From positions 1 through 41,063 of IMG/VR virus record IMGVR_UViG_3300021142_000073: a stretch of 41,063 nt of DNA, one strand, 5' to 3'. Positions 6,758 to 30,234 of the stretch are shown piece by piece. Every line of letters starts with the position of its first letter. Within the stretch, counting starts at the first letter, position 1. The notes under the pieces were generated by a model that saw only the letters and a program-made list of their open reading frames with translations, had not been told where the DNA came from and ran no database searches. The translations under genes were made by a program, and so were the position numbers. This DNA comes from a virus (lineage: Duplodnaviria > Caudoviricetes).

Positions 6758-9700
6758 ATGGGAGAAATCTTTGAATCTAATTCTGGTGCATTTCATAATG
6801 ACCCAGAAACAGGCAATAAAATTCCAGTTATTACTGGCAATCAAGATGTTGATGCTAAGTTAAATGGAATGACAAATGATGAAAGAGATGAATATTTCAA
6901 ACAATTAAACGCTCCACTAAAAGGAGAAGAAATTGCTGATTTATTACAAAATGCTGGTCAAAATGGATATAAGCCAACCAAGGAAGAATTTCAAACGTTT
7001 AAAGCATACAGAGATACGATTGCTACTGATTATTTAAAAAATATCAATGATGCGGCTACTTATATGTATGGTGAAGGTCTTTATGGTTTAAAACATATTG
7101 CGACAGCAGGAGCTGGAAACCCCGAAGCCTTATTAATGGGTGGAATTAGTCCTTATGAACTTGCTGAATCATTTGCACGTGGAACAAGAAATTTAGGCGG
7201 TATGCTTCTTGAATCAGAGGACCCTAATAGTATCTTTTTTAAATCATCTAAAATGTGGAGAAGCATGAATGAAAGTGCTTACCCTTGGATGCAACAATCA
7301 AATAATCCAGATGATTTAGAGTATAACACTTTTTTAGATGCTCTTAATTTTAGACTTGAAACCGAAAAACTAGCAAATGGAGACGAGACATTATTAGTTG
7401 GAAAAAATCATATTGACAATAGGTTTGTAGAAGCGGCTTCTACCATTACAGACCCATCATGGTTTGTAAATGCTGAAGAACTTACAATACCATTAAAATT
7501 ATTAACTAAAAGTGTTGTTGGTGTTGAAAATTTACAAAGATTCAACAATGTAGTTGGAAAAGCAGGTGCTATTACAAACAAAATTAAAAATGGTGTTTTA
7601 GGTGGTGCTTTAAAATTTGGAGGTATGCCAATTGAATTCATTGGTAATGCCGTAAGGGGAAGTATTGATACAGCAACAGAACTTGGAGGAAAAGCATTTA
7701 ATGGATTAACTGGAGTGCCTATTAATGATTTTAAGGCTACTGCTAAACTTGGAACTATTGGTGCAGGAGTTTCTGGTATTGATGTTCCCTTAGTAGCAGG
7801 TGCTGGAAAAACATATTTAGGTGCTTCTTTGGCTATTGGTGTAGGAGAAGCAATGCAAGCAATAGGAACTCAAATCATGAAAGGTGAACGTGGTTTTATG
7901 AGTTATGCAGAAATGGCTTTAAAAGAATCTGTGGAAAATGGAGTTAAATTAACTGAACCAGCAAAAAATATTCTTAAATTAATTCAAAGTGCTGACCCTT
8001 TATTTTCTTATGCTTCAAACTTTGGAAAAGGTGCTTTACATGGTGCTATTGTTGGTGGTGCTTTGGGATATTTAAGTGATGAAGAAGAAGGTTTATCTAA
8101 AGGTATTGGTGCTGGTTTAGCAATGGGAAGTATGGGTGCTTTAGTAAGTTCAACCGCTGGAAGTATTTCTGATGCTTCTGTAAATGCAAGAGCCGCTACG
8201 CAAGCAAAACTTGTAATGGAGAGTCTTAAAGAACATAATCCAGACAGGTATAATTTTTTTAAGGCTTATTATGATTACATTGAAACAAAGCGTAATAATG
8301 ACCCAAGATTAAGAGCATTAGCAGATAAGATGGTGTCTGGATTAGACCAAATTGCACCAGATGTTGCATTGCATTTATTAGACCCAAAAGGTTATCTTGA
8401 AGTTGCAAATAGACTTGGATTAGATGAAAATGCACGAGTTCGTGATGCCACTATCGGAAGCCTATCAAATGCTAATCCAAATGAACGTGCCATTATTTTA
8501 AGTTTATTAAGAGATTATTCTGGAAGATATGCTGGCAGACCAGAAGATTTTCAAAGAGAAGCAGAATCTGACGTAAGAGAACTTAGTCCTAAACAACAAG
8601 AATTGCTTAAAACTAAGGTTGAGCCTAGACCACAAGAACCTGCTCAACTGCACACAGATTTACCCTATGGCAGTCAAGAACGTATTGATTCTTACAATCA
8701 GAGTAGGGCTGTAAAAGAATGGGATGCTAAATATGATGAAACCCATTTTAGAAATGGTCATGCAAAACCAGCATGGATGCTTAAAGATGTTGAGGCTAGA
8801 CCTACTCAATATCAAATGCCTTACGACCAATGGAAGCGTTTAAACCCAGAGGAACAGCAAAAAGTAAGCAAGAAACAGCAAGATTCTAAGTGGGATGTTT
8901 CGGAGTGGGATAGAAAATATGCTGATACGCATGATTATACAGGTAAGCCATTAAAAGGTGAATCTTTGTACTTCCCAGATACCCCAGATAGATTAGCAAA
9001 TGTAAAAAGCCTTGAACAAGATGCTGTCAATAAGCATGAATCCCAATTAAGAGAACCACAAGGTCCAATTAAATTACAGGCTATTAAGCAAAAATGGGGT
9101 AGTCTTTCTGAAACAGGAAAAAGAACTTTTTTAGATATCCTTAAACAACATAGCGAATTATTTAAAGAAAAAACAAACAAAGAAGCATCGGCTTATTATG
9201 GTGATTTATTAGCCGCTGAAAACGCAAGAAAAGCCGTCCTTAAGGCTCATAATGGGAATATAGATACAAACCAAGTTCCTGATACATTAAAGGCTCAAAA
9301 ACTTGCTAAGGACTTTTTAGACGCTGAACGTAATCCTGATGGCAGTTTAACGCAACGTGGCAAAATGATTAAGACTAAGTTGCAACATGAAGGATTTGTT
9401 GATGAAAACGGAAACATAATGCAACGCCGTGAGGCTCAAAGATTACCAATCACTCTTGCTGATTTGAAATCTGCAAAAGGAATAACTCCTGAAAGAGATG
9501 CAAATGGTAGAGTTCATATTTATCTTAACTCTGATAATATGACTAGGGATACTTTCCCTCATGAATTATTTCACGCTATTATGCGAGAAACTGCTATGCG
9601 TGATATGTTTATTAAACCACTTGTTGATAAATTGTTAGGTACTTGGAAAGATGGAAAACAAGTTTCAAAACCAGTAGTAAATCTTAATGAAGTTTATCAA

Positions 9701-12700
9701 TTTTTAGACAATTATTACAAGAGACTTAATAAAGCAATATATTCAAATAGCAATAAAATTTATACTCCAGAGGCACATCAAGCGTTCATGGAAAACATTA
9801 AAAACGCTATTGATGAATACAAAAACTGGGATAATTCAAAAACCATTTCTAATAAAACTTTAGCATTATTACACAATGCCGTTGAAGAATTCGGTGCTAA
9901 TTACTTTAGCCATTGGCTAGTTGATACACCACCAGATTATTTATTTAGAGGCGGTGATTTAACAGGATTAAGAGGTATTGTTGATGATGTTAAATATGCT
10001 TGGGCTGATTATTGGGAATCTAAAATGAAATACGAAAATCCACAATTTGATTTTAGTGGAAACTTGGAACGTGGTTTTTTTGATAAAGCAGGAAATCGCA
10101 TTAAAAATGCTTCTTTAGATTACATGATGCGTGATATTCTTAGGGCTAAAGCAAATATGAATAAAGGTGTTTGGAGTCCATTAAGAATGTCTCCAGATGC
10201 TGTTAAGGCATACGTTCGTGGCAATGGTATGGCTAATGTCATTAAAACTGATGTTGCTGGCAGACCTAAATTATTAAAGGAATCAGAAGCAGAAAAACTC
10301 AATAGAGCCGCTGGTATTGCTATCAACAAGATTATTGAAGGGTTACCCCCAGAAGATAGAGTTGGTCTTAAAAAAGATGCTGATGGTAATTGGACTGGCA
10401 GATTAAACTCTAAAATCCTTGACATGATTGTTCAGTCTGGCTGGAGAGACAGAGCATGGGCTGACAAGATTGAACACGCTTATCGCATCATTGATGGCAA
10501 TGCTGAGAACGTTGTAGAAGCAGGTTATCTTGGTGCTACGGCACAAATTACTGATGCTTCATGGCCTCGCCTAACAGGAAAAGATGTTCCGTTCAAGAAC
10601 AGAAAATTCTTATTGTACGATGCAACAACAAAAATTGGACCTGATGGCACTTTCCATGTCTTGCTTCATTCGCTTGATATGCACGTCATTGAGAACAGAG
10701 CCAATGCTTTGTGGTCTAATCAAGAGTACAGAGATTTATGGTATGGCAACAGAGGTGCTATGGAAGCGGACTTCTTTAAGTACGTTCAAAACGCTTCTAA
10801 GCCTAGTTCTGAAAGATTGCAGTCTGCTAACTTGTTAAACAATGGTGACGGCAAAGGTGCTGAACGCCGTAATGTGCTTCACCAGATGCTTGGCATGGCT
10901 AAGACGGATGATAATCCATACTTTAACAAACCTATTGCCGAAATTCCACAGGGTTGGAGACAGTCTATCACTACATTTAATATTGATAGAATGACGCAAA
11001 TGCGTACCAGAGCAGGAGAACGCTTTGATTATAACCCAGAGAACGCTCATATTGCGTTATCGCATAACTGGAGTCCTGCTGATATGGAGTACGAAAACAC
11101 CAGTAATGGTCAAATTCTTAAACACGATTCTGAGTTTAAGTTTATTAGAGTAGGCAATTCTACCCAAGCATTTGATAATTTAGGCAGAAATTTAGGGTCT
11201 TTCCGTACGGCTGAAGAAGCCGCTAAAGCATCTAAAAAACTATTTGATACTAGAGTTAATAATCAAGAACAAGGTGGTCAAAAACTATTAGAACAAAACT
11301 ACGAAAGAATCGTTAAATTTTCACCTGCTTTATCTGATGAAGGAAAAGATGAGGCTTTTAAAAAAGGTGATGTTTATGATACTGATGAAATGAAGGCTTT
11401 TGTTAAAGGCAGACCACTTGTTGCTGGAGGATTAACTAGACAAGAATTAATTAAGAATTATTGGCATAATTTAATAGATTCAGATGGAAGTAAAATTAAA
11501 ACCTTTATTACACAACGTTATAAAGAAATTAAAGTTCAAATTAATAACAACAATAAACAAATTTCTGTTTTAAGGAAAAAAATAAATAATTTAGATTTTG
11601 GTTTTAGAAGCAGTGATGATGCTCAAAGAATTCTTCAAAATAAAGAATATATTTCTGCTGATGATTATCCATCTGAACTTAAATCTCAAATTAAAAATTT
11701 AACTGAACAATTAAAACTTTTAGATTCAAAGAATGATTTGTTTAGTGAGTTTATCAATACTTTTGAATCATATACTAATAAAAATGATAATTATAATGGA
11801 GGATTTATATATGATAAATCTTTTATTGTTAATATGTTAGAGGAAAGTAATCAAAGTATTTTATTTGGACACCTTTACGATGACCAAATTCAAACAGGAA
11901 AACCATTTGTTACTACTGCAACGCATGGTACTTCTTCTATTAAATTATTAACAAATAAAATTTTTTCAGAGGAAAGTTTAGGAAACAATACGCTTTGTTT
12001 ATCTGCCGAAATGGGAACATTTTTTGCTGGTTCTCAAGAAACTAGCACAGCATATGCTGATAAAGTAAAACATCAATTAAGGGCGGCTATTGCAATGGAC
12101 AATCCTCTTGTAGTTTCATTTCCTAGAGCATATGATGAAAGTTTTTTATCTCAACATATTCAAAGAGCCATTAATGGTGGATATGATGGAGTTGTATTTA
12201 AACAATTAGCCGACCCTGCTTATCCTGATACGATTTTTTGCGTATTAAAAGGAAAAACAAACGACAATATTAAAGTAATTGAAAGTTCCATTGATAAAAT
12301 AAACAGAGTTCCAAGAGGTAAAATGCCAGATGGCTCAAAGCCAATTAGCATATATCAAATGAACAATGGAAATACATCTCATTATCATGAATTCCTTGCA
12401 TTTAGTCCTAATGAAGAAGAACCTTCTCAAGAAGTAAAACAAAGAGCAAAAGAAGCAGGATATAGACCTACTGTTTATTATCATGGCACTAATAGGGATT
12501 TCAATGTATTTGATGCTAATGCAGAAAGACAATACGGTGAAAAAAGAAATGCAGGTATGTTTTTCTTTACTCCAAGATTAGATGAAGCAACTAATATTCA
12601 TAATGACACAAGTAAAGTAATGCCTGTTTTTCTAAAAGCAGACAATCCATTTAATACAGATTTAGGAAAATCTCCAAATTTTAACGTTTCTGATACTAAA

Positions 12701-15700
12701 AAAATTAAAGATTATTTTTACAAAAATGCCAATTATAGTGGCGATAGAAATTATTTAATGGATGTGCTTGATGGTTATTTAGAAAGAAATGAATTTGGAA
12801 CAGCAATTCAAAAATATCTTTCAAGACCACAAAGAATTGAACTTCTTGAAAGTTTAGGATACGATTCGTTACTTGATAAAGGAGAACATATTGTTGTTTT
12901 CCATCCAGAACAAATTAAATCTGCAAAGAGTTTTACTTATGATGACAAAGGAAATGAAATTCCACTAAGTCAGCGTTTTGATAAAAATAATCCAGACATT
13001 AGATATAGTCCTGCTAATAATAATTATCGTGGCGGGGATGATTATTGGAAACCTAGAAACCCATTTGAGGATAAAGATGAACAAGGTTTTAGAATCAGAA
13101 ATGTTCTTGTAGATAATAGTGTATTAAAAAATGACCCAGAAGCACGAGGTGGAGAATTTCATCCAGAATATGTAGATTGGGAAGATATTGGTCATTATCC
13201 ACAAACAAGAGCAACACGTGAAGAGAATTCACATGAATGGAAAAATTCTGGATTATGGGTTGATGACAAAGAAAAAGGTATTCTTACAAAAAACCCAGCA
13301 AGTGAAAGTGATGATGTTGGATATACCCATGCGGAATGGTTTGATTCACCAAGATATAGACATGACGAATATCCAACACCAGATTCTTATGGTAGATATG
13401 AAAAACCAAGATATGATAAAAATGGAAAATTAATTGACAGAGGACGCATCAGTATTGCTCACAGAGGTTATGAACATTTTGAAGGAGCGGCTCAATTACA
13501 TGATATTAAAAAACGTGTTGCTGATAAACTTGGTGTACCTGTTAATCATATTGACGCTTATGCTTTTGGTTTTGGTAAATGGAAAAACGACTTTGGCATT
13601 AGCAATGAAGATAAATTGCCAGTCAAGTTTAGTCCTGCTGATGAATCTTCTGCTAGACAGCCAATTAAGATTAAATCTGAACTAGAAGATTTAGTTAAAG
13701 ATGTATTTGGTAAATATAAGCATCTAAATGCTAATGGATTTGCTAATAAACTTCAACAAATGGGCGGTGAACGTGGCTATAAAGGGTTTAAAGAAGCACA
13801 AGCCATTGGACTCATTGACCATATTTCCAGAAAAAAACCTAATGAAAATTTAGACCCTCAAGAAATTCTTCAATTTATTAAAGATAATGGTATTGATTTA
13901 AATGTAGAAAGACATGCAAAAAGTGTTGATATTCCAGACACTTCTAAATATGTTTCTGCTGGAACTAGAAGTAATTATGAAGATATTGCTACAAGAATTA
14001 ATGAACAACATGCTCATGGAATTGAAGGTCACTTTGGTGGAGGCGATGTAGTTGTTCATACAAGATTAGATGACCGTATTAATTCTGATACAGGCGAAAA
14101 ACATACTTTAGTGCATGAAGTTCAAGCAAATAATGTAGATAAAAGTAACAAAATTGCAACTCCAGAAGAAATTGAAAAAGTAAGAAAAAAACTTGCAGAA
14201 CATGAAGCACTTAAATCTCATTTTATTAAATTAGGAATTTTTAATGAAAAAAATGGTCATTTAAGAAATGATATATTTAATTATTTACACGACAATGATG
14301 CTTCAAAAATTATACGGCAAAGATTTGATTGGTCAAATCCCGAAGGAGAACATGAATTAGATTGGAAAGAACATGAAATTATTTTAAAAGATAAAATTAT
14401 TGGAAAGTATTATAAACTTCTTTTATCTCAACGTTTTCCAAAAGAACTTGCTGCTGAATTTGCTTTTAAAATTGCGTGGATTCAAAATAGAGAAATTAAA
14501 AGATTTTTAAAAAATAGTTATGAATCACAATCGCAGATTAATAAAACACAATATAATAATGATACATTTTCAAAAGATGAAGTTTTAAAAACTGCTATTA
14601 AAGAATATTCAAAAATCAAAAGACCATCTAAGGAATTGTTTGAAACTCATTTTAGTCCTTATGTAACTAATTGGTTTGAAAATAACAAAATAGGAGATGA
14701 AATTTCTTCAGAAGTTAAAAAAAGAATTATTGATGAATTAAATTCAAAAGAAATTAAACCTCATCTTCAATTTGATGATGAAGTAATTGATAAACTTGCT
14801 GACATTTATAAATTATTAGCAGACAATCCTTTAAGTAGTTCTATATATAAAAAAGAAGATTGGAAAAATGGAAAAGCACAAAATAAAAATGGGGCACAAA
14901 GTTTCAATCAAACATTATATGATGATTTAAAAAATAAAAAATTAGAATTTAAAAAATTACATCCAGAATTAGATTTTAATTATAATAATAGAAACGGTTG
15001 GGATGGGTTTGATGATTGGTGGAATTCAGCAATTACTAATTCAGCAGATTTTTCTGATAATATTACTAATTTAAAAACAACCTTAAAACAATTAGAAAAT
15101 TCTTTAAACCCAAAAAAACTCCCTTTATCTGATGTTAAAGAATGGTCTATTATTTCATTAAAAAACACTATTGAAAGAGCGATTGAAAGTGGAAGTCAAA
15201 ATGTAACTTTAACACATCCGTTTGATTCACCTCCGCACTCATTCATGAAACCAAATGCGGCTCAAAGACTTTACGGAGAAATTATTCCTAGTGCATGGAA
15301 GGAATGGCTTAAAAAATACAACATAGAAGTAAAACAATTAAATCCTGATGCCAAAATTGATATTCCTTGGGATACAAAAAATAAAAATACATTAATTAAT
15401 TTAAAAAATGAATATTCAGACCTTGCAAAAGATACAGAAATAAAAAGAAGAAAATTAAAAGGAACTTTTGAAACTGTTGTTGATAATGAAGAATTAAAAT
15501 CAAAAGAACATCCAGATATTATTCATGCTATTGAATCTTGGATGAATGTTGGATGGGAACATTTTGAAAATATAAATGTATATAGAGATAGAATTATAGA
15601 TTCAATTCAAACTCCAGAATTAAGAAAAACAATAGAAGCATTTTTTAAATCTGTTGAAAAAGAATACGAATTTATTTTGGGAAATTGCGATGAGGATAAA

Positions 15701-16024
15701 TTAAAGCAAATTATGACTGATACGGCTCTTAATCGTGGCATGACGTTTAAGATTAATGACAAACTTAGAAATGATTTTGCTAACAATAATATTAGTATTT
15801 ATCGTTCTCCAGCAGATGAAACGCCTAGAAACATTACTTGGCAGTCTGAAAACACATCAGCAGGTAGCATCATAAAAAATACTGCTGGTTATGTAATTAT
15901 GAAATCAATGAGTAAATATAGGGTTTATAATCCATACAAAGCATTAGTAGGCGTTTACGATGATGAAAAGACGGCTATGGGTAAGATTAACAAACTAAGC
16001 CGTACACCAAATGAACTCAGATGA
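6758..16024 (+). CDS. giant internal virion (ejection) polyvalent protein with zincin metallopeptidase and ADP-ribosyltransferase-like modules
   Basis: 3088 aa. Gly/Ala hydrophobic N-terminal region; HELFH plus downstream EEFGA (about 9560-9900); two HGT...G.FF...NP...GYD modules (about 11920-12250 and 12470-12920); modules delimited by [FYWR]SP motifs. Confidence 0.8.
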   Translation: MGEIFESNSGAFHNDPETGNKIPVITGNQDVDAKLNGMTNDERDEYFKQLNAPLKGEEIADLLQNAGQNGYKPTKEEFQTFKAYRDTIATDYLKNINDAATYMYGEGLYGLKHIATAGAGNPEALLMGGISPYELAESFARGTRNLGGMLLESEDPNSIFFKSSKMWRSMNESAYPWMQQSNNPDDLEYNTFLDALNFRLETEKLANGDETLLVGKNHIDNRFVEAASTITDPSWFVNAEELTIPLKLLTKSVVGVENLQRFNNVVGKAGAITNKIKNGVLGGALKFGGMPIEFIGNAVRGSIDTATELGGKAFNGLTGVPINDFKATAKLGTIGAGVSGIDVPLVAGAGKTYLGASLAIGVGEAMQAIGTQIMKGERGFMSYAEMALKESVENGVKLTEPAKNILKLIQSADPLFSYASNFGKGALHGAIVGGALGYLSDEEEGLSKGIGAGLAMGSMGALVSSTAGSISDASVNARAATQAKLVMESLKEHNPDRYNFFKAYYDYIETKRNNDPRLRALADKMVSGLDQIAPDVALHLLDPKGYLEVANRLGLDENARVRDATIGSLSNANPNERAIILSLLRDYSGRYAGRPEDFQREAESDVRELSPKQQELLKTKVEPRPQEPAQLHTDLPYGSQERIDSYNQSRAVKEWDAKYDETHFRNGHAKPAWMLKDVEARPTQYQMPYDQWKRLNPEEQQKVSKKQQDSKWDVSEWDRKYADTHDYTGKPLKGESLYFPDTPDRLANVKSLEQDAVNKHESQLREPQGPIKLQAIKQKWGSLSETGKRTFLDILKQHSELFKEKTNKEASAYYGDLLAAENARKAVLKAHNGNIDTNQVPDTLKAQKLAKDFLDAERNPDGSLTQRGKMIKTKLQHEGFVDENGNIMQRREAQRLPITLADLKSAKGITPERDANGRVHIYLNSDNMTRDTFPHELFHAIMRETAMRDMFIKPLVDKLLGTWKDGKQVSKPVVNLNEVYQFLDNYYKRLNKAIYSNSNKIYTPEAHQAFMENIKNAIDEYKNWDNSKTISNKTLALLHNAVEEFGANYFSHWLVDTPPDYLFRGGDLTGLRGIVDDVKYAWADYWESKMKYENPQFDFSGNLERGFFDKAGNRIKNASLDYMMRDILRAKANMNKGVWSPLRMSPDAVKAYVRGNGMANVIKTDVAGRPKLLKESEAEKLNRAAGIAINKIIEGLPPEDRVGLKKDADGNWTGRLNSKILDMIVQSGWRDRAWADKIEHAYRIIDGNAENVVEAGYLGATAQITDASWPRLTGKDVPFKNRKFLLYDATTKIGPDGTFHVLLHSLDMHVIENRANALWSNQEYRDLWYGNRGAMEADFFKYVQNASKPSSERLQSANLLNNGDGKGAERRNVLHQMLGMAKTDDNPYFNKPIAEIPQGWRQSITTFNIDRMTQMRTRAGERFDYNPENAHIALSHNWSPADMEYENTSNGQILKHDSEFKFIRVGNSTQAFDNLGRNLGSFRTAEEAAKASKKLFDTRVNNQEQGGQKLLEQNYERIVKFSPALSDEGKDEAFKKGDVYDTDEMKAFVKGRPLVAGGLTRQELIKNYWHNLIDSDGSKIKTFITQRYKEIKVQINNNNKQISVLRKKINNLDFGFRSSDDAQRILQNKEYISADDYPSELKSQIKNLTEQLKLLDSKNDLFSEFINTFESYTNKNDNYNGGFIYDKSFIVNMLEESNQSILFGHLYDDQIQTGKPFVTTATHGTSSIKLLTNKIFSEESLGNNTLCLSAEMGTFFAGSQETSTAYADKVKHQLRAAIAMDNPLVVSFPRAYDESFLSQHIQRAINGGYDGVVFKQLADPAYPDTIFCVLKGKTNDNIKVIESSIDKINRVPRGKMPDGSKPISIYQMNNGNTSHYHEFLAFSPNEEEPSQEVKQRAKEAGYRPTVYYHGTNRDFNVFDANAERQYGEKRNAGMFFFTPRLDEATNIHNDTSKVMPVFLKADNPFNTDLGKSPNFNVSDTKKIKDYFYKNANYSGDRNYLMDVLDGYLERNEFGTAIQKYLSRPQRIELLESLGYDSLLDKGEHIVVFHPEQIKSAKSFTYDDKGNEIPLSQRFDKNNPDIRYSPANNNYRGGDDYWKPRNPFEDKDEQGFRIRNVLVDNSVLKNDPEARGGEFHPEYVDWEDIGHYPQTRATREENSHEWKNSGLWVDDKEKGILTKNPASESDDVGYTHAEWFDSPRYRHDEYPTPDSYGRYEKPRYDKNGKLIDRGRISIAHRGYEHFEGAAQLHDIKKRVADKLGVPVNHIDAYAFGFGKWKNDFGISNEDKLPVKFSPADESSARQPIKIKSELEDLVKDVFGKYKHLNANGFANKLQQMGGERGYKGFKEAQAIGLIDHISRKKPNENLDPQEILQFIKDNGIDLNVERHAKSVDIPDTSKYVSAGTRSNYEDIATRINEQHAHGIEGHFGGGDVVVHTRLDDRINSDTGEKHTLVHEVQANNVDKSNKIATPEEIEKVRKKLAEHEALKSHFIKLGIFNEKNGHLRNDIFNYLHDNDASKIIRQRFDWSNPEGEHELDWKEHEIILKDKIIGKYYKLLLSQRFPKELAAEFAFKIAWIQNREIKRFLKNSYESQSQINKTQYNNDTFSKDEVLKTAIKEYSKIKRPSKELFETHFSPYVTNWFENNKIGDEISSEVKKRIIDELNSKEIKPHLQFDDEVIDKLADIYKLLADNPLSSSIYKKEDWKNGKAQNKNGAQSFNQTLYDDLKNKKLEFKKLHPELDFNYNNRNGWDGFDDWWNSAITNSADFSDNITNLKTTLKQLENSLNPKKLPLSDVKEWSIISLKNTIERAIESGSQNVTLTHPFDSPPHSFMKPNAAQRLYGEIIPSAWKEWLKKYNIEVKQLNPDAKIDIPWDTKNKNTLINLKNEYSDLAKDTEIKRRKLKGTFETVVDNEELKSKEHPDIIHAIESWMNVGWEHFENINVYRDRIIDSIQTPELRKTIEAFFKSVEKEYEFILGNCDEDKLKQIMTDTALNRGMTFKINDKLRNDFANNNISIYRSPADETPRNITWQSENTSAGSIIKNTAGYVIMKSMSKYRVYNPYKALVGVYDDEKTAMGKINKLSRTPNELR

Positions 16025-26038: not shown

Positions 26039-26145
26039 GGGATGACTCAGGAATCGAACCTGACACCTTGGGATTTCACCCGACAACCCTTGCGGGATGC
26101 CATGGTCTTTAAACCATTTGCCAGCAGGACACCAGCCCGTCATCA
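26039..26145 (-). ncRNA. non-canonical tRNA-like RNA (about 106 nt)
   Basis: Acceptor-like GATGAC/GTCATC; perfect T arm TCAGG-TTCGATT-CCTGA; D-like GGGC-TGGT-GTCC; three hairpins in place of the anticodon and variable arms. Confidence 0.7.
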
Positions 26146-26174
26146 AAAATTAATCTACTTTCCAACCACCAAAC

Positions 26175-26194
26175 AAGGGGAATTGCTTCCCCTT
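26175..26194 (-). other. GNRA-tetraloop hairpin after the first leftward early gene
   Basis: AAGGGGAA-GCAA-TTCCCCTT on the minus strand, with only a weak U-tract. Confidence 0.6.
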
Positions 26195-26200
26195 TCCTGC

Positions 26201-26602
26201 TTAAGATAACGATAGTTTAACCTTCGATAAGATTTCTGGTAATGAGTTTTTGACCTCATCTTTAATCTTATCTGAGATTTCACCTGCAATTTCATCCATG
26301 ATTTCTGATTTGATTTCGCTGTTATCAAGTCCCTGAAGTTCTTCAGAAACATGTTCACGAACGAAATCTTGGGATGCAATGTCATTGGAATAAACACAGT
26401 CATCAAAGTGACCTTCAAAGTCATCTTCATTTACCTTGTTTTCCAATTCGCTTTCTAAACTGTCTTTTAGTTCTTCTAGTTTAGATTCTAACTGTTTAAT
26501 TTCCTCCCTTAGTTCGCCAAGTTTTACCTTGGTCGAAAGTAGAGATTCTAGTTCGGAAACTAGTTCAGTTAGTCCTAGCAGTTTTAATAATAACTTCTTC
26601 AT
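26201..26602 (-). CDS. acidic coiled-coil early protein
   Basis: 133 aa, about 34 D/E against about 17 K/R by hand count; first gene of the leftward transcript. Confidence 0.75.
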   Translation of the reverse strand: MKKLLLKLLGLTELVSELESLLSTKVKLGELREEIKQLESKLEELKDSLESELENKVNEDDFEGHFDDCVYSNDIASQDFVREHVSEELQGLDNSEIKSEIMDEIAGEISDKIKDEVKNSLPEILSKVKLSLS

Positions 26603-26675
26603 TTGGTTTGGTTTGGTTTGTTTGGTTGGTTGGTTATCCCACCCTAGGCATTGGTTGCCTTGGTTGGAAAGTAGA

Positions 26676-26741
26676 TTTCAAAGAGCGTGTTAGGTGGTTG
26701 CCTAACATCAACAAAGGTACTCATGGCTGGTTCGGTTGCAA
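26676..26741 (-). promoter_or_regulatory. leftward early promoter + hairpin + boxA
   Basis: TTGCAA-16-TACCTT, then TGTTAGG-CAACCA-CCTAACA, then CGCTCTTTGAAA. Confidence 0.7.
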
Positions 26742-27140
26742 GAGTATTTATATCCTATTAGGAAATCTAATAATGTATCCAAGATTTACTTATCATGGTT
26801 TAGATTTCGTAGTTAGGATTAAAATGCTGGTTAGAACAAATGAAATAAGAAAGTAAAGCAAATATAATCAATAAATAAATCAGTAGATGACCTAATAATG
26901 CTGATTAGATTTATTAATCATGACAAAACTACTCAAGATTAGCACTCTAATCATGACTGATTTACTAATCATTACCTAGTCAAGCATGATTAAAGTACCT
27001 AAGATTAAACTAATCATGTAATCATGAGTAAACTAGTCATATTTCACCGCTAAGGGGTCTAGATTGCCTTTTAAGCCATCTTTATAAAAGTCCTTACCAT
27101 ATCATGGACCTTTAGGGGTTTTTCAGGAAAATCATAAAAC

Positions 27141-27149
27141 TTATTCACA
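27141..27149 (+). promoter_or_regulatory. DnaA-box-like site
   Basis: TTATTCACA fits TTWTNCACA; single copy. Confidence 0.35.
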
Positions 27150-27159
27150 TGCGTCTGAC

Positions 27160-27176
27160 TTGGCATGGTTACTGCT
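27160..27176 (+). promoter_or_regulatory. sigma54 (-24/-12)-like site
   Basis: TTGGCATGGTTACTGCT with GG-N10-GC spacing. Confidence 0.45.
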
Positions 27177-27528
27177 TACAATGCCATTTACAGGTAATCA
27201 TGATAACATTAGTAAACTACTCATGATTAGTTTTTGAAACTGAGACTCAATCTCAATTCAATTTAGAATCATTCTAGGAAATCGTCAAAAAACTGTAAAA
27301 TCGCATTAGAACCATCTGGAAGGCGATTCTAGAGGGGGTTTGTAAAAGTCCTTACCATATCATGGACTAGGCATGAAAAGGGTCTTTACAGGCAAATGTG
27401 AGGGACAGCGATTTCGACCAATGTTTATAGGGGTTTTATGACTTTTCCTGACATGTAAAGCAAATTGTTGTTTTTAGGTAAAAAAACCACCTGACTGAAA
27501 AATAATTACCTAAATAGGAAAAAATGTG

Positions 27529-27596
27529 TTGAACTTGTATAATTCCTAGTCATATTCGATGTTGTCAGCGGTTCACCTGCTGACTGTTCTTTCAGA
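27529..27596 (+). promoter_or_regulatory. rightward early promoter + hairpin + boxA-like element
   Basis: TTGAAC-16-CATATT, then GTCAGCGG-TTCAC-CTGCTGAC, then TGTTCTTTCAGA. Confidence 0.65.
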
Positions 27597-27714
27597 TAGG
27601 TTTCCCTCGATTTCCTGCCGCCCCCTATGGGGTTTCACGCTGCGGTCAAAGTCTGGTTCATCCGCTCCCACGGATTTTTAAAAACCTTTCCTGTTCCTTC
27701 TCAGTCCAAAAAAA

Positions 27715-27784
27715 CCACCTGATGAGTCCTAGACGGACGAAACAGAGGTAAACTTCGCTATATGCGAATCAGACTCTGTAGTGG
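27715..27784 (+). ncRNA. type I hammerhead ribozyme
   Basis: CCAC-CTGATGA-GTCC(TAGAC)GGAC-GAAA-CAGAG...CTCTG-TA-GTGG; full catalytic core, predicted cut after GUA at 27780. Confidence 0.92.
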
Positions 27785-27818
27785 CTATATTGCCCAAAAA
27801 ACCAAACAAACAAAACCA

Positions 27819-28700
27819 ATGCGTAACAACCAAAACCCTAACTTCTCTACTGAACTAGTAGATACAAACATCCGCCAATCCTGCGAAGCGGATTTCCAAG
27901 TTGAAATCGTTCCGCTCTTTCAAGCGGACGGATTGCCAACAGGACTGAAAGCAACCCGCCGAACTGATTTAGGCAAAGTTTTTGCCTCAGTAGGCAATCA
28001 ATATGCTGTGGTGCAAAACAGCGAATTGATGAACAAAGCGGAACCTCAGTTTATCCAAAAACTAGGTGATTTTAATAAGAAAGTTTACCTAGTCGATGAA
28101 GGTCAGCGGACTTACATTCGCTACGACTTCAAAAACTATGGTTTCACGAATAAGAAAGTTGGAGACCATCAAATCCGCTTTGAACTTCGCAATTCGTTCG
28201 ATGGCTCTACCAAGGTTTCCCTTGCGTTAAGCCTACTGCGAGTGGTTTGCAGTAATGGAATGACCATTACAGAGGATGGATTCAATCTTCAGCAAAAACA
28301 CAACCAATTAGTCTCGATTGATAAAATCGGCGACTCAATTGACTTAGCAATCGAACTGTTCGCTAAGAAGCATGAGCAGATTATCCAAGCAGGCGAAACT
28401 GCGATTAGCCAATTGGAAGGTCATAAAATCCTGAACGGACTTGTTACCCGCAAATTAGTGGCAGAGCGGGTTGCTAATGAGATTCGAGAGTTGTGGGACA
28501 AGCCAACCTACGCTGAAGATGCTGACCGTAATTTGTACAACCTGCAAAACGCCATTACTCAGCATTTAACTCATGGCATGGAATTAGGTCGAAACAAGTT
28601 TGAGTTAGCAAATCGCTTGTCCGCTCGACTCAACGCAACCATCTTCGCCGAGATGACCAGAGGCAATTTAGACTCCCTCATGGTAGAATCGCTTAACTAA
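27819..28700 (+). CDS. DUF932-family protein
   Basis: V...Y.VVQN, RNSFDGS, LRVVCSNGM and NLYNL.NA.T motifs; start at 27819 after an AAAC-rich leader. Confidence 0.85.
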   Translation: MRNNQNPNFSTELVDTNIRQSCEADFQVEIVPLFQADGLPTGLKATRRTDLGKVFASVGNQYAVVQNSELMNKAEPQFIQKLGDFNKKVYLVDEGQRTYIRYDFKNYGFTNKKVGDHQIRFELRNSFDGSTKVSLALSLLRVVCSNGMTITEDGFNLQQKHNQLVSIDKIGDSIDLAIELFAKKHEQIIQAGETAISQLEGHKILNGLVTRKLVAERVANEIRELWDKPTYAEDADRNLYNLQNAITQHLTHGMELGRNKFELANRLSARLNATIFAEMTRGNLDSLMVESLN

Positions 28701-30189: not shown

Positions 30190-30234
30190 TTGACAATTAA
30201 ATAATATCAATGAAGATAAGGTAGTTCTTTGATT
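30190..30234 (+). promoter_or_regulatory. tRNA-cluster promoter with boxA-like element
   Basis: TTGACA-16-GAAGAT, then AGTTCTTTGATT. Confidence 0.5.

Follow-up and report, generated by a model that had tools for sequence, protein, structure and literature searches.

The early genes of the phage described here and of its relatives are organized, as judged by sequence comparison, in conserved and co-varying cassettes, in which a boxA word, an RNA arm, a gene, a hairpin and a trailer complementary to the arm follow one another in the order of the parts around 16S rRNA. We consider it somewhat probable that the phage uses the rRNA antitermination complex and RNase III of its host to make single-gene early messages. 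The analysed stretch of DNA (the window; 41,063 nt) is a complete phage record with direct terminal repeats and contains terminase, capsid, replication and recombination genes and three tRNAs. It also encodes a protein of 3088 residues (6758–16024, + strand) with an ART-PolyVal ADP-ribosyltransferase domain (E = 8e-19). Relatives were found through the terminase and by alignment, and 80 of the 462 terminase relatives among viral contigs were taken into the analysis; in a direct search with the DUF932 protein described below, the copy in the window was the sole match. Terminase relatives among MAGs are located in contigs titled Pedosphaera (52%), Verrucomicrobia (46%) and Opitutae (34%, in a 400-kb contig). 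The host phylum is probably Verrucomicrobiota, an assignment that we infer from these MAG contigs and that is to be read together with two closer terminase matches (77%) in short contigs of other phyla. All three candidate-host genomes contain nusB and RNase III (rnc) genes.

Every part of the order originally predicted for the left arm is present on the − strand of the window where it had been placed: a promoter, a hairpin, a boxA, a 17-nt arm, an acidic gene, a second hairpin, the complementary arm and a tRNA-like RNA. The predicted promoter (26714–26741) consists of TTGCAA (26741–26736), a spacer of 16 nt and TACCTT (26719–26714), and a 16-bp spacer is also found in relatives. A hairpin in the boxB position (26688–26707, −7.4 kcal/mol) directly precedes the boxA CGCTCTTTGAAA (26676–26687), which is matched exactly in relatives. 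The leader arm (26661–26677), which forms the 5′ strand of a long-range helix, is complementary over 17 of 17 nt to the trailer arm (26152–26168), the 3′ strand, so that the two constitute a perfect inverted repeat. The resulting duplex has an energy of −29.0 kcal/mol, and 16 of its 17 pairs have predicted probabilities of 0.81–1.0 in the read-through RNA of the window. Six more perfect inverted repeats of at least 15 nt occur in the window, all with arms more than 3 kb apart. No rRNA is found in the window, and the leader–trailer helix instead encloses an open reading frame (26201–26602) for an acidic, all-helical early protein of 133 residues (34 Asp/Glu versus 17 Lys/Arg) of no named family. 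Homologs of this protein are present in the early arrays of relatives; a database homology search returned none, Atlas gave only leads below 0.9 and the structure model is of low confidence (pTM 0.29). Past the stop codon and inside the loop lies a hairpin with a GCAA loop (26175–26194), which is terminator-like with a weak U tail. A predicted fold and one homolog give the tRNA-like RNA (26040–26144) an acceptor stem of 6 bp and a T arm, with four further hairpins in its interior. A scan for consensus promoters found 12 sites compared with 13.2 expected and passed neither the left promoter nor its divergent counterpart on the right; both promoters therefore rest on conservation. An antisense promoter inside the arm was ruled out by eye, as the inverted −35 element is absent.

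The left arm of relatives is made up of successive cassettes, each with a boxA, a pyrimidine-rich arm, a leader hairpin, a gene, a hairpin and a trailer, after which the next boxA follows. The design, initially thought to be confined to the first mRNA, is thus repeated for successive genes. The hairpin behind the gene is conserved as GGGGRRGNNACTAACCC followed by a U run and occupies the place of the GCAA-loop hairpin of the window; the GNRA loop, which had been listed among the parts, is not conserved. We collected 26 distinct cassettes from 14 loci (25 from 13 loci and that of the window), which were chosen by motif and not by pairing. Cassettes with other hairpins fall outside this count, and two such cassettes (in L005 and L012) show helices of 11 bp. 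In these related loci, which the original prediction had named as its check, the order of the elements is conserved, and arm and trailer co-vary through cassette-specific pairing. The mean duplex energy of a trailer is −15.1 kcal/mol with its own arm, −7.8 kcal/mol with the arm of the next cassette and −9.2 kcal/mol with dissimilar arms. The own arm is better than that of the next cassette for 24 of 25 trailers. It also exceeds the average over dissimilar arms in all 26 cassettes and each single dissimilar arm in 16 of them; 19 of the 26 beat at least 95% of shuffles and seven do not. Because the cassettes are related, they were collapsed to seven arm classes, for which the true pairing was equalled by 34 of 200,000 random pairings, with the own arm being the best in only four of seven rows.

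The predicted duplexes start inside boxA in all 26 cassettes, with the first paired base 5–10 nt from the boxA G. This would fit a helix that forms and stays uncut, either as a panhandle that protects the ends of the message or as a switch, in which pairing of the trailer with bases in the 3′ half of boxA displaces NusB/NusE and resets antitermination gene by gene. Four of the 26 helices are only 11 bp long, which is short for RNase III and also speaks for an uncut helix. We nevertheless consider this reading unlikely, as 21 of the 26 helices measure 16–23 bp (median for all 26, 17.5 bp), which is the geometry of the host 16S leader–trailer helices, and in E. coli such 16S helices are cleaved by RNase III (PMC10250234). 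Cleavage by RNase III thus remains our preferred fate for the helix. Alternatively, the arms could function at the level of DNA, where they would serve the shuffling of cassettes as inverted repeats, form cruciforms or bind proteins, with many trailers lying in the spacer of the next promoter. The strand test on the 26 cassettes does not separate pairing in RNA from pairing in DNA, since the sense strand pairs better in 12 of them and G–U pairs make up 28 of 446 pairs compared with 32 of 425. In favour of a role in DNA, 13 of 25 trailers are in a stretch long enough for a promoter, and both the order and the cargo of the cassettes vary between phages. The arms are, however, cassette-specific, contain bulges and G–U pairs and are tied to an RNA signal, and in the 12 of 25 cassettes that have no room for a promoter in the trailer the pairing is as strong (−14.7) as in the other 13 (−14.5). 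A role in DNA is therefore very unlikely in our estimation, and we continue with the helix as an RNA structure. Since a terminator-like hairpin precedes the trailer, formation of this helix would need read-through.

Other elements accompany these arrays. A conserved gene of 64 residues (L012:4975–5166, − strand, and relatives; alignment A3) is located in early arrays and is absent from the window; it has no clear match in Pfam and one weak match in the PDB (9f2c_A, E = 0.2), and we take it to resemble a prokaryotic histone. The early array of the same relative contains an ArdA anti-restriction gene (L012:4231–4551, − strand; PF07275, E = 1e-14). Structured RNAs that were not called are carried as early-array cargo in the right leaders of L182, L183, L188 and L194, in the third leader of L043, behind the second gene of L012 and at L292:1150–1430. 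A GGGGAAGTYACTAACCC hairpin is also found without a U run upstream of genes of other phages (L084, L086, L089, L101, L104, L112, L119 and others), which suggests a possible function in binding or processing beyond that of a terminator.

The similarity to rRNA leaders extends to the individual signals. Across all of the phage loci taken in, there are 17 distinct YGCTCTTTGAAA sites, one of which is the copy in the window and one of which is from a distant phage. A hairpin closes within 2 nt of boxA at all 17 sites, compared with 554 of 3000 random windows, and its sequence differs widely among them; a promoter spacer of 16 bp scores best at 16 of the 17. In the 16S leaders of genome G001, the word GCTCTTTGAAA stands behind a hairpin (L261) and is the same as the phage first-cassette word, and a second leader (L260) contains TGTTCCTTGAAA, which equals one internal phage boxA word. 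The promoters of these 16S leaders have 16-bp spacers by eye, and one begins with TTGCAA-CCGAA, like the left promoter of the window. In a sample taken across the phylum of G001, this boxA type is present in 22 of 31 16S leaders, two of 33 having been left out as too short. It is also present in 13 of the 18 loci with a whole 16S gene, and at all 13 the arm after boxA pairs with its own 16S trailer above the mean of other arms, being the best of all in seven. At one host locus (L279), the 16S trailer runs directly into the spacer boxA. The predicted geometry of the host 16S leader and trailer is that of the phage cassette. The rRNA-type layout that had been proposed is supported at the level of sequence: the hairpin–boxA unit, the 16-bp promoters and the leader–trailer helix are kept and co-vary in relatives, and they match the 16S leaders of candidate hosts. 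Separately, the promoter of the tRNA cluster in the window (30190–30232, + strand) has a boxA-like word, GTTCTTTGA, at about +1, as in many relatives, and GTTC is found at the start of host rRNA transcripts; some of the internal boxA words may for this reason be start motifs.

The right arm is encoded on the + strand. Its predicted promoter (27529–27556; TTGAAC at 27529–27534, 16 nt and CATATT at 27551–27556) resembles by eye the TTGAA(C/T)-16 nt promoters of relatives, and is followed by a hairpin (27564–27584), a boxA-like word TGTTCTTTCAGA (27585–27596), a C-rich leader (27597–27691) that may carry a small RNA as cargo, a type I hammerhead ribozyme (27715–27784) and the DUF932 gene (27819–28700; PF06067, E = 3.2e-13), the first of this arm. 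The parts of the predicted order (boxA, leader, hammerhead and DUF932) are thus present, with reservations for the first two. The boxA-like word is degenerate and weak when taken alone, because the loose pattern matches 12 times in the window, and the fold of the leader exceeds that of shuffled sequences by a small margin only (z = −1.7). A second boxA-like word, TGTTCCTTCTCA (27692–27703), had been missed; it is the same as the internal-cassette word of relatives. The right arms of relatives have other RNAs at the position of the leader, and in four of them the arm has its partner some 130 nt further downstream, so that the two enclose a small RNA; the best partner for the arm in the right leader of the window falls within the hammerhead. 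Between the two divergent promoters, the region 26850–27500 contains many repeats of the TAATCATG type and a 29-nt direct repeat (27081 and 27339), and is possibly an origin or genome-end region.

The hammerhead of the window has the full core (CUGANGA, GAAA and NUH) and stems I–III of 4, 4 and 5 bp, with a predicted cut after A27780. A type III reading was ruled out, as stem I is unable to form. Its score of 26.3 bits is below the Rfam gathering score (48.5 for RF00008), and Rfam likewise calls no hammerhead in four relatives that have a type II form. A strict hammerhead finder missed type II copies with a mismatch in stem III, and a looser finder was used. Among the best-scoring 26 of 80 DUF932 loci, one of which is that of the window, a type II hammerhead lies upstream of DUF932 in 11 of the other 25, so that the hammerhead predicted at this site recurs there in another permutation; in L192, which has the same divergent layout, none was found before DUF932. 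In ten aligned type II copies 93% of cells are paired, seven of 18 pairs show compensatory changes and none of 500 shuffles reaches the score; the type I hammerhead of the window has no variant. The presence of a different hammerhead permutation at the same site suggests selection on cutting before DUF932. A small hairpin (27783–27794, + strand) begins 3 nt behind the predicted cut, and by eye its CUA could pair with loop II as a short pseudoknot.

The tRNA-like RNA on the left arm is called neither by ARAGORN nor by Rfam 15, in which it matches no family. It has no canonical anticodon arm and no encoded CCA, and thus does not form a cloverleaf with D and anticodon arms; the acceptor stem and T arm are present (in two sequences only). 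In this it is like P1 C4 RNA and similar tRNA-like processing substrates, which have an acceptor stem and a T arm, and is distinguished from them by its four inner hairpins and by the missing canonical anticodon arm. Alone, it folds weakly better than shuffles (z = −1.3). Searches of GenBank phages gave T-arm fragments only, and among viral contigs the copy in the window was the sole match. One homolog was found, at positions 1435–1546 of the metagenome contig L292, which belongs to the same group of phages. When the two sequences are compared by eye, compensatory changes preserve the stems of the acceptor and of the T arm as well as two of the inner hairpins. A model made from both sequences found no third copy among 100 sources (2/100 in all), and in L292 the RNA lies about 500 nt past the last trailer. 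The tRNA-like RNA is thus, on comparative grounds, a real but rare and optional element, and the analogy to a fixed spacer tRNA, as originally drawn, fails because the RNA is rare and in L292 does not adjoin the helix.

Such irregularities raise the question of whether the parts are independent, with boxA only shielding early and untranslated RNA from Rho, the ribozyme and tRNA mimic being mobile cutting marks, and the likeness to rRNA reflecting no joint design. The rarity and variable place of the tRNA-like RNA, the lack of a hammerhead in L192 and the boxA-like words that head the tRNA cluster would all agree with this, as would the known hammerheads that flank prophage genes (PMC3088659). 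Independence of the parts would not account for the start of every arm at boxA, for its covariation with the trailer of the same cassette or for the same coupling of boxA and helix in T5 and K1-5. The first 10.5 kb of T5 contain one boxA-type site with a 27-bp helix directly behind it, and the first 4 kb of K1-5 contain three such sites, at which the helices measure 15, 20 and 10 bp; the trailer of the 20-bp helix runs into the next boxA. We therefore regard the reading as independent parts as quite improbable, and return to a joint, rRNA-like use of these signals.

In the mechanism that we propose, host RNA polymerase would start at the rRNA-like promoters with 16-bp spacers. With NusB/NusE bound to boxA, the modified polymerase would then pass the hairpin and the U run that follow the gene. 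The arm would be held at the RNA exit channel and anneal with the trailer on its emergence, RNase III would cut the helix of ∼17 bp to release an mRNA clamped at both ends, and the next boxA would reload the complex. Cleavage by the hammerhead would leave a 5′-OH end on the DUF932 message without the help of a protein, and the tRNA-like RNA would be an optional cargo that is cut out by RNase P and RNase Z. In published work, boxA suffices to assemble the rrn antitermination complex, which, according to a published model, keeps hold of the leader at the exit channel while the trailer is still to be transcribed (PMC8632103; PMC10250234). In some leaders, boxA can also promote Rho termination (PMC12360218), and in E. 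coli rRNA the effect of boxA is only twofold to threefold (PMC10250234).

Among known systems, the rrn leader and spacer, with boxB–boxA(–boxC), the rrnTAC and the RNase III-cut 16S helix as described in PMC10250234 and PMC8632103, share with the phage cassettes the hairpin followed by boxA, the 16-bp promoter spacer, the helix that starts from boxA and encloses a unit, and the passage from the trailer to the next boxA, which is also seen at host locus L279. The cassettes differ in that they enclose protein genes or small RNAs, repeat gene after gene with cassette-specific arms, hold a terminator-like hairpin inside the loop and have a helix of about 17 bp, compared with more than 30 bp in enterobacteria. 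They work like the rrn leader–trailer system but are not a member of it, since the enclosed unit is no rRNA. The prophage-flanking hammerheads of types I and II (PMC3088659) resemble the present ones in the complete core, the three stems and the position directly before an early gene; here a single site, downstream of a boxA-like leader, is occupied by a type I hammerhead in the window and by type II hammerheads in relatives. The nut sites of lambdoid phages and their N protein (PMC10250234) share a phage boxA and host Nus factors on early transcripts, the use of Nus factors being proposed for the present phage; the order of hairpin and boxA is here that of rrn, and nut sites have no gene-enclosing helix. 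No N-like match was found among the 42 open reading frames of the window. In T7, the early region of which carries a boxA-like word, host RNase III splits the early polycistronic RNA into messages at local hairpins between genes, whereas here the two helix strands flank the gene. A literature search, the scope of which excluded supplements and most subscription and older phage papers, returned no description of boxA-led helices around phage genes in the parts of the texts available.

Taken at its broadest, the pattern could mean that, in several bacterial phyla, lytic phages present every early gene in the guise of an rRNA precursor. The rrn complex would then serve for read-through and also, as an RNA chaperone, for the closure of gene-specific loops, which would give end-clamped, self-contained messages and swappable cassettes, with the new anticodon-less tRNA-like RNA and the two ribozyme permutations as extra cutters; we put this forward tentatively and hold it to be rather doubtful. 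More narrowly, it is likely, from the comparisons presented, that a known rRNA system has been redeployed on phage mRNA. If this is true, the machine that transcribes and processes rRNA has a second client in phage mRNA, and the long-standing model of leader delivery to a distant partner by Nus factors could be tested outside ribosome assembly, on small dispensable genes of T5 and K1-5. The swapping of early genes as complete expression units would then also be explained, and the succession of boxA, arm, gene and trailer would constitute a compact part for stable single-gene messages.
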